64,000 nucleotides of DNA from Nitrososphaerota archaeon (GTDB lineage Archaea; Thermoproteota; Nitrososphaeria; Nitrososphaerales; Nitrosopumilaceae): the NCBI GenBank assembly GCA_028866655.1, contig JAGWHQ010000004.1, forward strand, positions 7,674 to 71,673, written 5' to 3'. Both the position numbers and the translations under genes were made by a program. Shown here piece by piece: positions 21,902 to 43,448 of the stretch. The first letter of the stretch is position 1, and every line of letters begins with the position of its first letter. A model generated the notes under the pieces. It was given only the letters and a program-made list of their open reading frames with translations, made no database searches and had not been told where the DNA came from.

Positions 21902-23176
21902 ATGCAACTTCAAAATAAACGATGGATGTGGTACTTGTTACCATCTCAGATTACTTCTCAGGGATTAAGCACTGTAATTCCATTATACGTAATCTTTCTT
22001 GGAGGCGATATAGGAGAAATAGCTATCATATCTGCCCTTCAAAATGGCTCAATAGCTATTGGCTCATTAGTATGGGGGAAAATAATTGATAGATTTCATT
22101 CTAAAAGACTGATACTTGTTATCTCATCCTTTTTTGTTTTGCTTTGTAGTCTTGGCATGTATTTTACCAATTCAATCTACATTCTTTATGGATTAGCAAT
22201 AGTACTCGGGTTTTTTATGGTTGCAAAAAGCCCAGTTACCCAGCTTCTTGTAATGGAATCGGTACAAAAGAATCTTTGGAGTTGGCTATTTGCTAGAACA
22301 TCAATTATCAGTACACTTGGAATGTTAGTTGCTATGATAATTGGAACAGTTGGAAGTTTTTATTTTGATCTCAGACCATACTTTTTGATATGCGCTGTAT
22401 CAAGCGGCGTATCCATGGTTTTGAGCATCATATCTGTTAAGGATGACGAGGGTATTCATATTGAAAGAAGCAGTATTGCTCACTCTCTTTATGGTCTACG
22501 ATACTCAATTAGTCATCATCATTTTGTTTTTCCAAAAATTCTAGAAGTATATGATTTCAGGCACATAATTACACTATTCAAGGGAAGAATAAGCAATGAA
22601 ATAGGCATATTCTATCTGGCTTCATTTTTTTTCTATTTTGGAAGTAACATGTATTTTACTGCCTGGACGCCATTTTTGAAAAATCAGAATTTTTCAAATG
22701 CTGATGTTTTCCTGAATTATACAATTCAAATGATAACCATGCTACTAGTATTTTTCATAGCTCCCAAAATAATATCAAAATTTGGAGAAGAACGATCAAC
22801 TATTCTAGCGCATATACCACGAATTTTAGCAGTAATGATTCCAGCTGTATCATTATTCTTCATGACAGGGACTTTGGGTTTTCCAGTTACAATAACATCG
22901 GCTTGCATGATGGTAATTGCATTTTCAATCTTTAGTACATCTAGCTCTGTGATATTTTTCAAAAGCATCCCACAAGGATTCGAGGGAAAATATCTAGGAG
23001 TAAACAGCGCAGTAACAGGCATAGGAGTATTTGCAGGTTCTCTTGTTACAGGAGAATTGACAAAATTTCTAGGATATGCCACTATGTTTCTATCTGCCTC
23101 TGCAATACTAGTGGTATCACTAGTATTGTACAAGATATACTTCCGATATAGACTATCACACAATAAGATAATCTAG
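21902..23176 (+). CDS. MFS transporter
   Basis: About 12 TM helices; WGKIIDRFHSKR loop motif. Confidence 0.88.
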   Translation: MQLQNKRWMWYLLPSQITSQGLSTVIPLYVIFLGGDIGEIAIISALQNGSIAIGSLVWGKIIDRFHSKRLILVISSFFVLLCSLGMYFTNSIYILYGLAIVLGFFMVAKSPVTQLLVMESVQKNLWSWLFARTSIISTLGMLVAMIIGTVGSFYFDLRPYFLICAVSSGVSMVLSIISVKDDEGIHIERSSIAHSLYGLRYSISHHHFVFPKILEVYDFRHIITLFKGRISNEIGIFYLASFFFYFGSNMYFTAWTPFLKNQNFSNADVFLNYTIQMITMLLVFFIAPKIISKFGEERSTILAHIPRILAVMIPAVSLFFMTGTLGFPVTITSACMMVIAFSIFSTSSSVIFFKSIPQGFEGKYLGVNSAVTGIGVFAGSLVTGELTKFLGYATMFLSASAILVVSLVLYKIYFRYRLSHNKII

Positions 23177-23820
23177 ACGAAGCGTGTTGTGGAAGCTGAT
23201 TGATCCGCAGGAGTTGAAGGCAATTTGTCGTTGATTGCTGCCTCAGCAACTGCAGAAGCCTCTTGGAGAATCTTGTCAGATTCTTCGCTTGATGCGCTTG
23301 AGTCGATTCCAAAGTCACCACTGTGGAATGTATCAGTCATAAGACCTCCTAGCATCTCAGTCATTCCAGATAGTTCACGGTCAGCCTCTGGCATGAATTT
23401 GACTAGAGAAGATTTGAGGTTCTTCATCAAGCCTATTGTTGGCATGATTGTTACTACAGTATCTCCTAGGTCGTGGAATGTGCTTAGTCTAAGCTCGATT
23501 TGTTCTAGAGCAATTCTAGCATTTCCTAAAAGCTTTGTTACTTTTCTAACTTCGGCTAATTCTTTTGATAAAACTTTACTTGCAGTGATATCATGATTCT
23601 GTGTTGCAATTACAATTCTTTTGAATAATTTTTCATCTTTTTGTTTTAGCTTTGTAATCATTCCATCGAGTTTTACAATTTGAGTTTGGAGTCTTTTTAT
23701 TCCAGTCTCTAATCTTGGTTTTAGTGCACCTTTTGGTTTTATTACATCATTAAATTTTTCACCAATGCTTGGTGTTTGCTGTCTTTGCCAATTGTTCGTA
23801 AATGTTGTCATGGTTACCAC
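23173..23820 (-). CDS. cdvB: ESCRT-III/Snf7-family CdvB paralogue
   Basis: Helical Snf7 core KLKQKDEKLFKRIV...ELAEVRKV...LEQIELRL; 'SEESDKILQEASAVAE' tail; alternative start 23811. Confidence 0.85.
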   Translation of the reverse strand: MVTMTTFTNNWQRQQTPSIGEKFNDVIKPKGALKPRLETGIKRLQTQIVKLDGMITKLKQKDEKLFKRIVIATQNHDITASKVLSKELAEVRKVTKLLGNARIALEQIELRLSTFHDLGDTVVTIMPTIGLMKNLKSSLVKFMPEADRELSGMTEMLGGLMTDTFHSGDFGIDSSASSEESDKILQEASAVAEAAINDKLPSTPADQSASTTRFV

Positions 23821-24147: not shown

Positions 24148-24469
24148 GGTTATGTACAAGTCTGCAAAAAATAATTTTAAAGAAAAATTTTTGAAAAAAT
24201 TGTTTAAAGAAAAATTTAAAAAATAATTTTAAAAAATAAATCAAAAAATATTATTTGAAAAGATCAAATTTGATTTTGTCTCATGATCATCAGTCAAAAA
24301 AATGAATCAACGTGAGAGATTACAATATGCTAATTAGAATATTTTGGTATTAATGAAATATAAAATAGAATTTTTATATTATATCATGATGAAATAACGA
24401 ATTAATAGATTGTACACTCATAGTTAAACCTTTTTATTTATGTTAATCGAAATTCTTATAAGATATTAT

Positions 24470-25384
24470 ATGACTCGCGAATCTTTTGGTTCTGGTGGCC
24501 GTTGCCCTCGTTGTGGAAAAGGCCCAATGGTAACTGATAACACTACAGGAGAAATGTTTTGCGGAGGTTGTGGTTTTGTACTTACAGAGCGCGTAGAAGA
24601 ATCCGGTCCAGAATGGAGATCATTTTCTAAAGAAGAACATGAAGATCGAAGTAGAACTGGAACTCCTACTTCACTTGCAATGCATGACATGGGACTTGCA
24701 ACAATAATTGGTCCTGCTGACAAGGATGCATCAGGAAAACCACTTTCTGCATCAATGAAGAGTACAATAGAGAGACTCAGAACTTGGGATAGCAGAAGCC
24801 AAGTTCATGAACCAGTAGATAGAAACTTTAGACAAGCCTTCAGCGAACTTGATAGATTAAAAGATAAACTTGCATTATCTGATGCAGTAATTGAAAAGAC
24901 TGCTTACATTTACAGAAAAGCACTTGACAAAGGTCTTGTCAGAGGCAGATCAATTCCAGGACTTGTAGCTGCTGCACTATACGCAGCATGTAGAGATACT
25001 GAAACTCCAAGGACACTTACAGATGTTGCAAATGGAATCAACATCAAACGAAAAGATGTTGCCAGATGTTACAGATTATTATTGCGAGAACTTGATCTGA
25101 AAATGCCAGTTGTTGATCCAATAAAATGTGTAGCAAGAATTGCAAGTAAAGCAGGCTTGAGCGAGAAAACAAAAAGAAGAGCTTTGCAGATTCTAAAAGA
25201 TGCAGCTGAAATTGAAATTTCAGCTGGAAAAGATCCTATGGGACTTGCAGCTGCTGCACTATACTTGTCATGTGTTATGAACGGAGAAAACAAAACACAA
25301 AAGGATGTTGCACAAGCTGCTGGAGTAACTGAAGTTACAATCAGAAATAGATACAAGGGATTGAAAGAATCACTCAAACTCTAA
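24470..25384 (+). CDS. tfb: Transcription initiation factor IIB
   Basis: Zn ribbon CPRC...CGGC, GPEWRSF, two cyclin repeats, VTEVTIRNRYK; start ATG 24470. Confidence 0.97.
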   Translation: MTRESFGSGGRCPRCGKGPMVTDNTTGEMFCGGCGFVLTERVEESGPEWRSFSKEEHEDRSRTGTPTSLAMHDMGLATIIGPADKDASGKPLSASMKSTIERLRTWDSRSQVHEPVDRNFRQAFSELDRLKDKLALSDAVIEKTAYIYRKALDKGLVRGRSIPGLVAAALYAACRDTETPRTLTDVANGINIKRKDVARCYRLLLRELDLKMPVVDPIKCVARIASKAGLSEKTKRRALQILKDAAEIEISAGKDPMGLAAAALYLSCVMNGENKTQKDVAQAAGVTEVTIRNRYKGLKESLKL

Positions 25385-25436: not shown

Positions 25437-25568
25437 AAAAATTAATGGCGTGGCCCTTGTTCGTAGACAAACAGAGATTACCTCTTTTTATCCCACCCAT
25501 GTGGGATTCACAATTCAAGTCTACGGAGCCACGCTCTCTTAAGCAGTAGATTTTACATCTTTCTGCAT
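25437..25568 (-). ncRNA. Candidate structured RNA, element E1 (homologue of E2)
   Basis: ATGCAGAAAGATGTAAA 5' motif; stems GCGTGGCTC/GGGCCACGC, CGTAGAC/GTCTACG, ATCCCAC/GTGGGAT, AGAG/CTCT; own TATA box and 3' T-tract. Confidence 0.7.
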
Positions 25569-25590
25569 TATTTATCATAATACATCATCA

Positions 25591-25598
25591 TATTTATC
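25591..25598 (-). promoter_or_regulatory. TATA box of element E1 (GATAAATA, preceded by BRE-like ATGAAAT)
   Basis: Ends 23 nt before the conserved ATGC start at 25568. Confidence 0.55.
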
Positions 25599-26554: not shown

Positions 26555-26773
26555 GTGACCCCAAAAAAGAAGAGTGCACTCAAGGTAATTATCATGCTTT
26601 CAATCATTTGGTTTGCCTCAGCATTACCTGTACCTTTCATATGGTCCAATCCAAGTCCTCAACAATCTGAACAGTTCAAGACCTATCTGGAAATAGCAGC
26701 CTTGATTTCTGTGCCATTTATTGCAATGGCAATTGCCTGGACATTAAAGCCAGAACTTACCACACGTGGCTAG
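26555..26773 (+). CDS. Small two-TM membrane protein
   Basis: 72 aa, GTG start, two hydrophobic helices. Confidence 0.6.
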   Translation: MTPKKKSALKVIIMLSIIWFASALPVPFIWSNPSPQQSEQFKTYLEIAALISVPFIAMAIAWTLKPELTTRG

Positions 26774-27513
26774 CCAAGAAACTCTACTGCCCCTAGTCCT
26801 TCGGGGGTTGCTTTAATCCACCTGGTTCTTCCAATCCTTTCAACTTCAATGAATCTCCACTCGTTTAGAAGTGGCTGGATGATATTTTTATCAAGACTTG
26901 CAAATCTTGCTTGTTGAAAATTTTCCTCTCTTGCATTTACCATGATGAGTTTTCTTTCGTATGCAATTTTTGCCATCTCCTTCTTGGTTATTTTTCCATT
27001 ATTTTCTTGTATTATTTTCAAGGCCTGTACCAGTACAGGTTTTGGAGTATGAATTTCATAAGCTGGCAACTTGACAACTGATTTGAGTCCAGATGATAGC
27101 TGTTCCCCCTTTACACTAGAGTAACTTTCCGGTTCTGCATAATATGGAGTAAGTTTTATCTTTCCTTGAAACATCATGCATGCCATCATACATGCAATTG
27201 CTTGTATTTTTGATCCAGAAGAACAGTTTACAAAAATATCATTGCCATCTTCTTTTTGTACAATTTCTCGTAATGCCTTTAGGATCTTGAATAGATCAAA
27301 TCTATTGGAATGTGCTACTTGGACTTCGATCTTTTCTTTTTTTAGCTGAGCTCGAATTTTTTCCATGAATCCTTGGGCTTGATCCTTTGATGGTTCTGCG
27401 TGCATCAATAGCCACACTCTATCGGCTTTCATTTGTTTTGCAGGAATTGCAATTCGATCAATTTCAAAACCTACAGGAGCTACATGTACACGGAGGTTTA
27501 CTATTTTACTCAT
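26770..27513 (-). CDS. CARF-like domain + wHTH transcriptional regulator (HFX_2341/DUF6293, Csa3-like)
   Basis: VHVAPVGFEIDRI, IFVNCSSGSKIQAIA, C-terminal wHTH ending RTRWIKATPEG; start ATG 27513. Confidence 0.75.
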   Translation of the reverse strand: MSKIVNLRVHVAPVGFEIDRIAIPAKQMKADRVWLLMHAEPSKDQAQGFMEKIRAQLKKEKIEVQVAHSNRFDLFKILKALREIVQKEDGNDIFVNCSSGSKIQAIACMMACMMFQGKIKLTPYYAEPESYSSVKGEQLSSGLKSVVKLPAYEIHTPKPVLVQALKIIQENNGKITKKEMAKIAYERKLIMVNAREENFQQARFASLDKNIIQPLLNEWRFIEVERIGRTRWIKATPEGLGAVEFLG

Positions 27514-27649
27514 GTTAGTATGTATAGTTATCATACTATGGTGATGATATATAATAATTGTGCATTGTATACAGAAACATGCAACAAAAACTCACATCAG
27601 AGCAAAGCAAAGTCTCTGTTTATCCTAGAATAAGATCAGTCTTTGAGAA

Positions 27650-31181: not shown

Positions 31182-32114
31182 ATGTCAAGCTTTTTTGTAT
31201 TACAGAAACAATACGAAGACCTTGCAAGGGATGAGATAATTGCAATATCAAAAAGTTATGATCCAAAGTCAAACATAAAATCAGAGCCAAGACTTGTCAT
31301 GGTATCATCAAAGGTTCCATGGCAAAAGATAGCAAGCAGGGCAACATTTGCAAGATATTCTGGAACCATAGAAAATACATTTGATGATATTACAAAAATC
31401 GACTTGTCTATACCTACACCAAAATCATTTGTATGCAGGACAATAAACTTGTCATCAAAAAATACAGGCTCGTCTGCACTTGAAAGACAAGCAGGTGGGA
31501 TACTCTCAAAAAGATGGGGCTCCAAGGTTTCCCTCTCAAACCCTCATGTTATAGTATATCTCATCATTACAGATTCCAAAAAATATCTAGGATATGCAGA
31601 CTGTCAGATTTCACCAAGTCATCCAAAAAAGATAATCAAGCACCCGCATGAACTTGATACAAAACTTGCAAGATGTATTGTTAATTTATCAGGATTAAAG
31701 GAAAAAGACACTCTCTGTGATCCTTTTTGTGGCACTGGAACAATTTTGCTTGAAGCTGAATCCATGGGGATTAATGGTATCGGAATGGATTTTGATAAAA
31801 CAATGTGCAAGATAACAAGAAAGAACTTGGCTGCAAATGGATTTGATTCCCAGGTGATAAATTCTGGCTATGAAAAAATACAGGACATCATGGGTACAAT
31901 AGACGGTATTGTTACCGACTTGCCATATGGAATATCATCAAGGTCATCTGTCTCTCCAAAGAAATTGATTCAAGATTTTGTCTCAGTCATACCAAAGAGA
32001 AAAAAACTTGTAATTGTATACAAGAAGGGTCTTGAAGTGGATGATATCAGCAAAGCAAAGAAATACGAGATCTACAGACACAAGAGCTTGACAAGAGTGA
32101 TTGCGGTAAGATGA
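31182..32114 (+). CDS. THUMP-domain tRNA guanine-N2 methyltransferase (Trm11/TrmG10-like)
   Basis: [11 protein letters not shown] motif, TDLPYG. Confidence 0.8.
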
Positions 32115-33010
32115 AGCTAGTATTTTTGGGAACATCAGCAGCACAACCAACTGCAGAGCGTGGCATGACATGCATCTGTTTGGTACTTGACAGGGAGATA
32201 CTGATGTTTGATGCAGGAGAAGGCGCACAGATTGCATTTTCAAAAGCTAAACTTGGCTGGAATAAAAAAATGAAAATATTTGTGACACACTTACATGGAG
32301 ACCATTGTGTTGGGATACTTGGCCTATTGCAGACCATGTCGTTGCAGAACAGGACAGAGTCTGTTGACATCTACGGTCCAACTGGAATTGAAGAGTTTAT
32401 CGCGGCAAATCTCAAGATACTAAATTTTGGCCTGACATTTCCTGTCAGAATAACTAGAATCAAGGAGGGACTAGTCTTTGATGATTCTGGATTTAGCGTT
32501 CACGTATGTGAGGCAGAGCATTCCATTCCTGCCTACTCGTATTTATTTACAGAAAAAGACAGGCCTGGCAAGTTTTATCCTGAGAAAGCAAAGGAGCTTG
32601 GCATCCCAGAGGGAAAGCTCTGGCATGATCTTCAAAGCGGCAATGAGGTAAAAGTTGGTGATAAACTGGTAAGACCATCTGATGTAACTGGAGAAAAACG
32701 TCATGGCATCAAGATTGGCATATCAGGGGACACAAGACCTACTGCCAAGCTTGTAGAATTTTTCAAGGGTTGCAATTACATGACATTTGATTCTACATAT
32801 TCTGATGCATTACAAGACAAGGCAAAAGAGAATTTCCACTCGACATCAAAGGAAGCAGCAGAGCTTGCCAAAAAAGCAGGTGTCTTAAATCTTATCTTGA
32901 CACACTTTTCTGCAAGGTATGAAGATGTGCAAGAGCTTGTCAATGAAGCAAAGACAATTCATGATTCCGTTACTGCTGCAAAAGATCTCTTAGAGATTGA
33001 CATCAAGTGA
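32111..33010 (+). CDS. rnz: Ribonuclease Z
   Basis: FLGTSA, THLHGDH, exosite [23 protein letters not shown]. Confidence 0.95.
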
Positions 33011-33735: not shown

Positions 33736-33850
33736 TTTGTGTTTTTTCAGATTAATTTGATTAGTTGTGAGTAAAATGTTGATTATTTTGGATATGAGAA
33801 CAATAATTTATACAAAATAAAATATATTCATGTAAGAAATCATACTAATT

Positions 33851-33858
33851 ATTAAATA
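33851..33858 (+). promoter_or_regulatory. TATA box of element E2 (ATTAAATA)
   Basis: Ends 23 nt before the conserved ATGC at 33881, same spacing as E1. Confidence 0.55.
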
Positions 33859-33880
33859 AGAGAATAACGTATAAAGAACA

Positions 33881-34024
33881 ATGCGGAAAGATGCAAATTC
33901 TGGCAAATGAATTTGCGTGATCCTGTGAAAAATGGTACATAGTGAAGTACAATTCGTTGTACGAAGCGGCAAGAGAAAGCTTTTGCCTATACAGGGTCAC
34001 GCCATCACACCTTTTCCTGTTTTT
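33881..34024 (+). ncRNA. Candidate structured RNA, element E2 (homologue of E1)
   Basis: ATGCGGAAAGATGCAAA 5' motif; 12-bp stem 33915-33926/33991-34002; GTACAA-TTCG-TTGTAC; GGCAAGAG-AAAG-CTTTTGCC; 3' T-tracts. Confidence 0.7.
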
Positions 34025-34066
34025 ATAAAATTCAAGTTCAATCGATACTGAAATTTTCTTTGTATT

Positions 34067-34939
34067 TTATTGTGATAAAATTCCAGTTATGGTAGAATTT
34101 TGCACATCTGATGGTGCATATGCAGATGCATGCAATGTTCCGTAAATTGCATTGTTTATTGTCATTTCTATGATGTGTGGAGTGTTTGGAACATCGTTAA
34201 CCTGGGTTGAAAACTGGGAAGAATAAAATGTTCCAGAGAACAAGACAGTGTCACTGTTTTTCATTGTGACTGTAACTGATTTTGTCTGGCCAGATGTATC
34301 ATCAAAATTTAACACTGCATTGTTTCCTTGGTTTACCATGGTAAGCTTGACTGTTTGATAGTAAGATGGAAGAGATGGTAAGGTAGTTGAGCTTGTACCA
34401 CCATCACTAGAATAAGGAGAGATTATCAGACCACTTGGAACATCTACTGGTGGAGAATTTGGTTTTGCTGTAAGTTTTGTTACCTGCACAGGATCATCTA
34501 CATTTGATTGACATTGATCAAGTTGAATTATTCCAGTTAGCTGTTTTATTCCATTTATTGTCTGGGCCAATTCTGGAACAGAGATTTGACATGTATTACC
34601 ATTTTTTTCAAAGACCTGTCCAGTATAGTTTTGTCGAGATACATATTGTGGAGCAAGTTGATAAACAGAAGTTGAATTGTTATTTGGAGCCATATTTAGA
34701 ATAGAATTTGCACTAGACAATATACCAGAATTGTTTTCAAGCAATTTTGCACCAAGGCCTACGTCCTTGACTGCTAGCTTGGAATCATTAATCACTTGCT
34801 TGCTGGTTGCAACTTGATCAATCTTGCCTTTTACAGTATCAATTGATGATGGTATTTTCTGAAAGAATTTTGATGAGCTTGGTACAAAGATAGCTACTGC
34901 AGCTATAATGATTCCAATAATGATCAGTTTACCTATCAA
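34067..34939 (-). CDS. Membrane-anchored exported hypothetical protein
   Basis: N-terminal TM, S/T/P/N-rich beta domains. Confidence 0.7.
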   Translation of the reverse strand: MIGKLIIIGIIIAAVAIFVPSSSKFFQKIPSSIDTVKGKIDQVATSKQVINDSKLAVKDVGLGAKLLENNSGILSSANSILNMAPNNNSTSVYQLAPQYVSRQNYTGQVFEKNGNTCQISVPELAQTINGIKQLTGIIQLDQCQSNVDDPVQVTKLTAKPNSPPVDVPSGLIISPYSSDGGTSSTTLPSLPSYYQTVKLTMVNQGNNAVLNFDDTSGQTKSVTVTMKNSDTVLFSGTFYSSQFSTQVNDVPNTPHIIEMTINNAIYGTLHASAYAPSDVQNSTITGILSQ

Positions 34940-35007: not shown

Positions 35008-35430
35008 TTATCCAGTTATTTGAGTCAGATCAGGTGCAAGCCAGTCCACTACCTTCTCAAGGTCCTTTGAATGAAGTATCACCTTGATTGGGCCCATGGC
35101 AGACTCTTCTGCTTCCTCGCATACTGCAATTATATCCACATAGGCTGCCTGCTTGTTGAGGTAAAACCAAGTGGTGTCTCCTTTTGTATTAAATCGCATC
35201 TGTCTTCGGTAGATCTTGTTGGTTCGATGTTTTTTGATTGTCTCTTGGATTTTTACAAGCGATTCCAACTGGTTTGAGGTTGCCTTGATGCTTCCTTCCT
35301 TGTATTGGTAATCTGTTTCTAGTATGACATGCGATACAGCAAGTCTGACTTTATCTGGATCTTCGGATGGATTTACTGCTGCATAGACTTCGATCTTGCA
35401 GGTAACATTTGGAATCTTCAATTCATCCAA
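35008..35430 (-). CDS. UPF0201 RNA-binding protein (ribosomal L5-like fold)
   Basis: VNPSEDPDKV, FYLNKQAAYV, MGPIKV. Confidence 0.85.
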   Translation of the reverse strand: MDELKIPNVTCKIEVYAAVNPSEDPDKVRLAVSHVILETDYQYKEGSIKATSNQLESLVKIQETIKKHRTNKIYRRQMRFNTKGDTTWFYLNKQAAYVDIIAVCEEAEESAMGPIKVILHSKDLEKVVDWLAPDLTQITG

Positions 35431-43371: not shown

Positions 43372-43448
43372 TGGTGGGGCCGGCCGGACTTGAACCGGCG
43401 ACCTCTAGCACCCCAGGCTAGCATCATACCAAGCTAGACTACGGCCCC
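43372..43448 (-). tRNA. tRNA-Pro(GGG), CCA encoded
   Basis: GGGGCCG acceptor stem, anticodon arm CTAGC-CTGGGGT-GCTAG, T-loop GGTTCAAGTCC, ends CCCCACCA. Confidence 0.97.

Follow-up and report, generated by a model that had tools for sequence, protein, structure and literature searches.

What is a reading frame of nine codons doing at the very start of a structured RNA? The question is raised by a 64,000-nt stretch of DNA (hereafter the window) from a Nitrososphaerota archaeon of the family Nitrosopumilaceae (GenBank assembly GCA_028866655.1, contig JAGWHQ010000004.1), in which two short elements, E1 and E2, each open with an ATG whose frame closes at codon 10, with different stop codons, 4 nt before the main stem of a folded RNA. 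Ammonia-oxidising archaea are among the most abundant microbes of soil and ocean, and RNA-based regulation in them is almost unstudied. An initial annotation, made from the sequence alone, described both frames, with sequences, coordinates and stop geometry that proved exact for E1 and E2 alike, and proposed a ribosome-engaging RNA in the form of a leader peptide, a ribosome sponge or a rescue-type RNA.

Here we place the two elements within a chromosomal, vertically inherited small-RNA family that is defined across soil, groundwater and marine Nitrosopumilales. In this family start, frame and stop are conserved as a unit although the peptide is not, and the unit is fused to a structured core, which offers a testable case of ribosome engagement by an RNA that is not an mRNA, in a phylum that mostly initiates on leaderless messages. 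If confirmed, it would bear on how cells that translate such messages prevent their stable RNAs from being handled like mRNAs, or turn such handling to use, and on how translation status is sensed.

Anatomy and fold of E1 and E2

A single family of structured small RNAs, approximately 125-135 nt in length and inherited vertically across Nitrosopumilales, is represented in the window by two paralogues, E1 (25568-25437, minus strand) and E2 (33881-34015, plus strand). They have a common architecture, with their own TATA box, a 5' hairpin (P0), a three-way junction of helices P1, P2 and P3, and a T-run terminator. The E1 covariance model recognizes E2 at 24.5 bits (E 0.015), the E2 model recognizes E1 at 42.5 bits (E 5.5e-7), and neither finds a third copy within the 64-kb window. 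The features of the two genes are these:

33852-33859, plus: E2 TATA box TTAAATAA, at -29 to -22 from the A of the ATG, kept in all E2 orthologues
33881-33910, plus: E2 micro-ORF, ATG CGG AAA GAT GCA AAT TCT GGC AAA TGA (MRKDANSGK*), with ATG at 33881-33883 and TGA at 33908-33910, then an ATTT linker and GCGTG from 33915
33893-33916, plus: E2 5' hairpin P0' (GCAAATTC / GAATTTGC), from the MFE fold
33915-34002, plus: E2 three-way-junction core, from RNAalifold on 29 orthologues
33915-33925 / 33992-34002, plus: E2 helix P1
33947-33952 / 33957-33962, plus: E2 hairpin P2, loop TTCG
33968-33975 / 33980-33987, plus: E2 hairpin P3, loop AAAG
34003-34024, plus: E2 3' tail, read from the sequence, with T-runs TTTT (34012-34015) and TTTTT (34020-34024)
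25590-25597, minus: E1 TATA box ATAAATAT, at -29 to -22 from the A of the ATG
25539-25568, minus: E1 micro-ORF, ATG CAG AAA GAT GTA AAA TCT ACT GCT TAA (MQKDVKSTA*), with ATG at 25568-25566 and TAA at 25541-25539, then a GAGA linker and GCGTGG from 25534
25543-25566, minus: E1 5' hairpin P0, outer stem GCAG/CUGC, inner stem AGAU/AUCU, loop GUAAA
25448-25534, minus: E1 three-way-junction core, from the fold, RNAalifold and pair counts
25534-25526 / 25456-25448, minus: E1 helix P1a
25525-25519 / 25468-25462, minus: E1 helix P1b, separated from P1a on the 3' side by the bulge AACAA
25507-25501 / 25496-25490, minus: E1 hairpin P2
25485-25473, minus: E1 hairpin P3, AGAG-GUAAU-CUCU
25437-25447, minus: E1 3' tail CATTAATTTTT, T-run terminator

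The T-runs of E2 are likely an archaeal terminator, and a T-run is found 3' of CACGCC in all E2 orthologues.

In structure alignments of 26 E1 and 29 E2 orthologues alike, helix P1 is long and closes the structure, hairpin P2 is variable and a further hairpin, P3, follows; the frequency of G-U pairs fixes the strand of the RNA. The E1 core is 99.2% paired, against 31-52% in slid controls, and the E2 core 98.4%, against 28-49%, with 0 of 500 shuffles matching the observed values in either case. Compensatory double changes are seen at about 10-11 pairs in E2 and 5 in E1, and single-sequence folding yields z-scores of -4.0 (E2) and -5.3 (E1) relative to shuffled controls. Because an alignment of the whole divergent family by MAFFT and RNAalifold misaligned the middle part, P2, the structural claims made here rest on the two sub-family alignments. 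Within the E1 family, P3 is invariant.

Hairpin P3 (R-AGAG-GNAAU-CUCU-Y; 25473-25485, minus) is also the best-conserved part of the family, and contains a GAGG(U) core that may resemble a Shine-Dalgarno sequence; its GUAAU/GNAAU loop may likewise resemble the 1095 loop in the GTPase-associated centre of 23S rRNA. A pairing of the P3 loop with the 3' tail, seen by eye, was discarded as expected by chance in T-rich tails.

The initial annotation did not remark that the ORF coincides exactly with the conserved hairpin P0, which in E1 occupies nt 3-26 of the RNA, that is, the body of the ORF. All clades are predicted to form a two-tier P0 that starts at nt 3-5 and reaches approximately nt 26, with energies of approximately -5 to -9 kcal/mol and with differing, partly compensating sequences in both the outer (GCAG/CUGC, CGA/UCG, GUCGA/UCGAC, UGCGU/GCGCA) and the inner stems (AGAU/AUCU, GGAU/AUCC, CGAU/AUCG). 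The E2 hairpin P0' differs from the P0 of E1, being formed by GCAAAUUC/GAAUUUGC and including the GA of the stop codon, and its pairs compete with the first 2 bp of P1; in the alignment, 97% of its cells are paired, with U-G wobbles and one compensatory pair (U-A to A-U, at locus L041). Nucleotides A1 and U2 are predicted to be unpaired with probabilities of 0.97 and 0.86. In a marine-type clade (loci L088, 2585-2713, minus; L100, 273-400, plus), the 5' hairpin is exactly 3 nt shorter and the ORF has 8 codons followed by TAG; here a CA immediately 5' of P1 is predicted to take up the U and G of the AUG in base pairs (UGCGU/GCGCA), which would partly sequester the start codon.

None of the RNA classes compared accounts for the two genes. 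A search of the whole window against Rfam 15 at the gathering score returned tRNA-Pro only, as did ARAGORN, with nothing at E1 or E2; relaxing the Rfam search of the two regions to E<=10 gave chance-level matches only (STnc30, 21 bits against a gathering score of 120; SpR20, 17 against 45). Box C/D guide sRNAs were rejected on the lack of a C (RUGAUGA) or D (CUGA) box in E1 and E2 and of any Rfam snoRNA match inside them, and H/ACA guides on the ACA after P1, which is present in E2 orthologues only and not in E1 or distant homologues. A hammerhead-like core is absent or not conserved among the homologues. A minimal RNase P RNA was likewise set aside, there being no RNaseP match in Rfam, and Nitrosopumilus maritimus having a standard archaeal rnpB (PMC2996960).

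Distribution, history and neighbourhood

Homologues were collected by two routes. Through RNase Z, 80 genomic loci with 10-kb flanks were gathered, among which E2 is present in 42 and E1 in 31, at syntenic positions, and distant E1-type copies were found in four Nitrosopumilaceae genomes. Metagenomes were scanned with a pattern made of P3 and the 3' strand of P1 (AGAGGNAATCTCT N14-30 CACGCC), in which the 5' end plays no part; this gave 120 loci, 65 of them recognized by the E1 model, with marine, sediment, groundwater and soil contigs represented. The final set of 136 homologues, with 79 distinct 5' domains, is drawn from soil, groundwater and marine Nitrosopumilales and covers the lineages that keep the P3/P1 pattern or the RNase Z synteny. 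In a protein search with Snf7, the relatives among the matches listed were all at least 82% identical.

The flanking genes in the window, which belongs to a Nitrosotalea-like ammonia oxidizer, encode TFIIB, an SDR protein, Sir2, RNase Z (97% identical to Nitrosotalea/Nitrosopumilaceae proteins) and a Snf7/CdvB-like protein. Synteny shows vertical inheritance of the RNA genes and does not imply co-transcription with their neighbours. A mobile or viral origin was rejected on the same synteny, and on two pattern scans of IMG/VR that gave chance matches only, recognized by neither model. E2 lies between the Sir2 gene and a gene for a 290-aa protein in the Nitrosotalea clade only (window 33736-34066); in other Nitrosopumilaceae (L058-L064, L070-L074) only about 15 nt separate these two genes and no RNA intervenes, which marks E2 as a lineage-specific duplicate of the Nitrosotalea clade.

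Downstream of both RNAs the next gene is convergent: a TFB gene (24440-25384, plus) follows E1, on the minus strand, and the 290-aa ORF (34067-34939, minus), which has no Pfam domain, follows E2, on the plus strand. Marine or groundwater relatives have a convergent ORF of 144-158 aa in this place, and the distant loci L125 and L109 are arranged alike. The convergent arrangement means that E1 and E2 are not 5' leaders; cis-regulation of neighbours was rejected as well, these being convergent or divergent. In distant relatives the order throughout is the RNA, the convergent small-protein gene and a Snf7/CdvB-like gene on the strand of the RNA. The Snf7/CdvB-like gene lies about 570-900 nt downstream of the RNA and is followed by a gene for a coiled-coil protein (Nitrosopumilales; the same two loci and others). 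In Nitrosotalea, the TFB (TFIIB) paralogue fills the slot between the RNA and Snf7 (23173-23820, minus).

Several other genes nearby deserve mention. The protein encoded at 26770-27534 (minus) has an HFX_2341-like N-terminal domain, weak CARF/Csa3-like matches and a C-terminal winged helix (DUF6293), and so resembles a CARF-type regulator; no CRISPR array or cas genes were seen near it. Two RNA-metabolism genes lie within 1-2 kb of E2, namely the RNase Z homologue upstream (32111-33010, plus) and a gene for a PF01877 'RNA binding' family protein downstream (35008-35430, minus). As E2 is a recent insertion, its adjacency to them is probably a coincidence.

Conservation of start, frame and stop

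An ATG occupies model positions 1-3 in 136/136 homologues, followed by positions 4-6 that vary by 0.9-1.7 bits, and all 79 distinct 5' domains have a frame-1 stop just before P1, with frame 1 never closed early. The initial annotation had asked whether the ATG at +1 and a stop at nt 28-30 are both invariant, homologues lacking the ATG or the codon-10 stop being taken to speak against its proposal. The ATG proved invariant, and no homologue (0/136) has lost it or the in-frame stop; the fixed stop position did not hold, the stop being at nt 28-30 in 66 of the 79 domains, at nt 25-27 in 5 and at nt 31-33 in 8. It is thus codon 9 in the marine clade, codon 11 in one E1 sub-clade and codon 10 elsewhere, always in frame, and lies 1 or 4 nt after P0 and 4, 3 or 0 nt before P1. 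All three stop codons are used (TAA 37, TGA 31, TAG 11) and TGG never; in 39 E2 orthologues neither the ATG nor the TGA (nt 28-30) varies. In composition-matched shuffles of the 5' domain, the first in-frame stop falls in the same zone with a probability of 0.12; a stop ahead of P1 occurs in 38/79 domains for control frame 2 and in 15/79 for control frame 3, mostly early. Such regularity in frame 1 goes far beyond chance. Immediately beyond the stop, 3-4 nt rank with the most variable of the whole RNA (1.1-1.8 bits); the first base of the stop itself does not vary.

Since the homologues are kin, raw counts of this kind overstate independence, and a count of changes on a tree is the fairer measure. 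On a neighbour-joining tree built from the 3' domain alone, the state of the stop changed at least 17 times, its codon identity shifting 16 times and its position 4 times (each shift of position being +/-3 nt). All of these changes produced a different in-frame stop, none TGG or a sense codon. The triplet adjacent to the stop underwent at least 31 changes among 19 forms. Where the stop lies with respect to P0 and P1 thus drifts, but its phase relative to the ATG stays fixed, which argues that a reading frame, rather than an RNA motif, is conserved. As judged by this comparison, the constancy of phase is the strongest argument for that view, the multiples-of-three part of which draws on about 4 changes of stop position.

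The peptide itself is another matter. Mean entropy at codon positions 1, 2 and 3 is 0.63, 0.90 and 0.93 bits, with no excess of the third position over the second, and amino-acid class is exchanged freely at codons 2, 5, 6, 8 and 9. Synonymous variation is seen for Lys (AAA 29, AAG 26), Asp (GAT 46, GAC 13), the final Asp (GAC 29, GAT 6) and Arg (CGG/CGA/CGT/AGA), and Asp stands at codon 4 in 59 of 66 sequences, giving a consensus of M-x-K-D-[AVI]-x-[SP]-x-[DAK]. These patterns suggest that selection acts on start, frame and stop, and weakly on the peptide, bearing out the caution of the initial annotation that the peptide might not be selected, at least not strongly. Nucleotide-level conservation without a third-position excess indicates that constraint on the RNA explains most sequence identity in the 5' domain, and RNA structure likewise accounts for much of what E1 and E2 have in common at the nucleotide level, given that the ORF coincides with the P0/P0' hairpin.

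The 5' end and what the frame may do

The promoter bears on whether the RNA begins with the AUG. The TATA box of E1 and E2 is of the type (A/T)TAAATA(A/T), with a second conserved TAT near -10; the 8-mer stands at -29 to -22 in both genes and in all homologues that include upstream flank, and TAAATA is invariant in these. All 11 Thaumarchaeota genomes surveyed previously are dominated by leaderless genes, with a promoter about 26 nt upstream of starts, and in the geometry termed group D the TATA box lies about 26 nt before the start codon with a spacer of 22-24 nt (PMC6028130). The geometry of E1 and E2 matches that of group D (PMC6028130), and the local Snf7 gene has an identical TATA-ATG spacing; a window-wide histogram of TATA positions for protein genes, with naive first-ATG starts, is sparse and merely consistent with this. 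As the promoter geometry is that of leaderless genes and the polymerase is blind to what follows, a start at A1 is the simplest expectation from the sequence, and we infer that transcription starts at or within a few nt of the invariant ATG. Spacing in comparison with tRNA promoters fits a start at A1 or at G3 equally (with an uncertainty of about 2 nt), and a G3 start would remove the AUG and coincide with the beginning of P0. The promoters of tRNA-Pro (18 orthologues) and tRNA-Val (3) have the same TATA type and no ATGC at the predicted start.

The RNA is present in metatranscriptomes, where assembled Logan contigs end at 33880 (1 nt before the ATG of E2) and 25572 (4 nt before that of E1), and, at the 3' end of E2, at 34015. 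Contigs from RNA libraries include the AUG, and some (X23, X7) also cover the promoter, so that DNA carry-over is possible. In three rhizosphere metatranscriptomes the RNA was not conspicuously abundant. Beside these, the promoter of tRNA-Pro(GGG) (43375-43448, minus, and 18 orthologous loci) is highly conserved (CCCAC-N-ATTTAATAATTTCA...), and 25 nt separate the end of its TATA box from the mature 5' end, which implies a leader of only 1-3 nt.

The reading that we favour, with a probability of about 45%, is that the leaderless micro-ORF is selected for ribosome engagement on a trans-acting structured RNA. Read from A1, the RNA consists of an AU overhang, P0, the stop codon, a linker of 0-4 nt, the GC-rich P1 closing a junction with a variable P2 and a near-invariant P3, and a U-run, and the AUG opens a frame of 8-10 codons covering exactly P0 and ending at the foot of P1. 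Initiating ribosomes would bind this AUG, as may be expected where most mRNAs of the phylum are leaderless, and initiation, short elongation and termination, not the peptide, would be what matters. A ribosome at the stop would melt P0 and, with its downstream footprint, the first turns of P1, so that translation and the folded core, presumably protein-binding, would be mutually exclusive, and the folding of the RNA, its stability or its binding of partners would be tied to the translation-initiation capacity of the cell. This scheme would accommodate a translation-gated switch, a decoy for initiating ribosomes or protection of the 5' end by ribosomes. The narrower proposal of an order-wide RNA acting as a translation-gated switch or ribosome decoy, whose fold, partners or lifetime report or buffer initiation capacity, we regard as unlikely; if true, it would be a regulatory principle undescribed for trans-acting RNAs in archaea. 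Counting against ribosome engagement in general is the position of P0 directly behind the AUG, which should lower leaderless initiation.

That same hairpin is part of the case for a purely non-coding RNA, a serious if somewhat doubtful alternative in which the ATG would be a promoter or 5'-end element, such as an ATGC 'box B' initiator with a start at G3, or a 5' end recognized by a protein, and the U-R-R after P0 would be a motif of the RNA, a site for protein binding, or simply a safeguard by which stray ribosomes are let go before they unfold the core. The older literature on archaeal stable-RNA promoters gives ATGC as the box B consensus, and ATGC fills positions 1-4 in 52 of 66 distinct 5' domains of the 30-nt class. 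In the E1 clade the first nucleotide of the outer P0 stem is G3, which is paired for the most part; TATA-to-start spacing fits either A1 or G3, and nucleotide conservation in the 5' domain has no clear codon periodicity. The idea of a general ATGC initiator is weakened by the tRNA-Pro and tRNA-Val promoters of the same lineages, which lack it, and by the ATGA of the distal E2 clade and the ATGT of four sequences, where the ATG is nevertheless invariant. The AUG is also included in contigs from RNA libraries. As for the motif and the safeguard, the distances from the stop to P0 and P1 vary, its frame relative to the ATG does not, the identity of the triplet changed at least 16 times and always to a stop, and frame 1 is never closed early, though a pure safeguard would tolerate early stops.

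At the opposite extreme, a tiny protein-coding gene would have a peptide of 8-10 residues as its product and the structured 3' part as a stabilizing or regulatory 3' UTR. Conservation of start, frame and stop would fit, as would the synonymous variation at some positions (Lys, Asp and Arg codons) and the prevalence of Asp at codon 4. The reading is nonetheless improbable, in that second codon positions vary like third ones and codons 2, 5, 6, 8 and 9 are free, E1 and E2 of one genome encode different peptides, peptides of this length rarely act alone, and the most conserved parts, P1 and P3, lie in the supposed UTR, so that the RNA itself appears to be the functional entity. Two of the forms put forward by the initial annotation fare worse still, even though a ribosome-engaging RNA, as it proposed in general terms, agrees with the comparative data. 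A short ORF that runs up to the base of a stable helix, with a U-run behind it, does look like an attenuator, and one of about 10 codons resembles the tag of tmRNA. A leader peptide has no co-oriented gene next to it to control, the downstream gene being convergent in every lineage examined, including Nitrosotalea and the marine and groundwater relatives. A rescue-type RNA would call for a tRNA-like domain, whereas ARAGORN finds no tRNA-like or tmRNA gene, Rfam yields no tmRNA or tRNA match even at E 10, and the ORF begins with an AUG at the 5' end rather than an internal resume codon. Both we consider highly improbable.

The closest parallels to selection for ribosome engagement lie elsewhere. 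Dual-function sRNAs such as SgrS/SgrT, RNAIII/delta-haemolysin and Spot 42/SpfP are likewise independently transcribed and structured and carry a short conserved frame. Their ORFs are internal, usually have a ribosome-binding site and encode conserved peptides of 15-50+ residues, whereas the frames of E1 and E2 are leaderless, 8-10 codons long and weakly conserved in peptide, and form a hairpin abutting the core helix. E1 and E2 share with this class their own promoter and terminator and a stable, conserved secondary structure, and their conserved single-stranded stretches, the P0 and P3 loops, are short. In Archaea, the 'spRNAs' of Methanosarcina mazei are reportedly dual-function (coding and regulatory) small RNAs. 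Haloferax volcanii, likewise an archaeon with prevalent leaderless translation, has sRNAs with ribosome occupancy and no detectable product, suggestive of a regulatory interaction with ribosomes (PMC12482152). These were defined experimentally and the present family comparatively, and we know of no frame-conserved micro-ORF reported for them. The searchable literature yielded neither a description of this RNA family nor a TSS or Ribo-seq study of these archaea, and Rfam has no family for it. We therefore regard the family as new, with an unusual architecture in which a leaderless ORF forms a hairpin abutting the core, and with dual-function sRNAs and those of H. volcanii as its nearest counterparts.

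Other likenesses are more partial. Like tmRNA, E1 and E2 are stable structured RNAs with a frame of about 10 codons closed by a stop; unlike it, they have neither a tRNA-like domain nor an internal resume codon, with the AUG at the 5' end, and we know of no tmRNA in Archaea. Regulatory micro-ORFs in which translation rather than the peptide matters are familiar from bacterial leader peptides and eukaryotic uORFs, such as that encoding the 'MAGDIS' hexapeptide of AdoMetDC, where start and stop are likewise conserved, the peptide is loose and the ORF ends before a regulatory structure. E1 and E2 differ from them in having no downstream cistron, the RNA ending about 100 nt later at the U-run. The Asp at codon 4 followed by Ile, Val or Ala may be reminiscent of MAGDIS.
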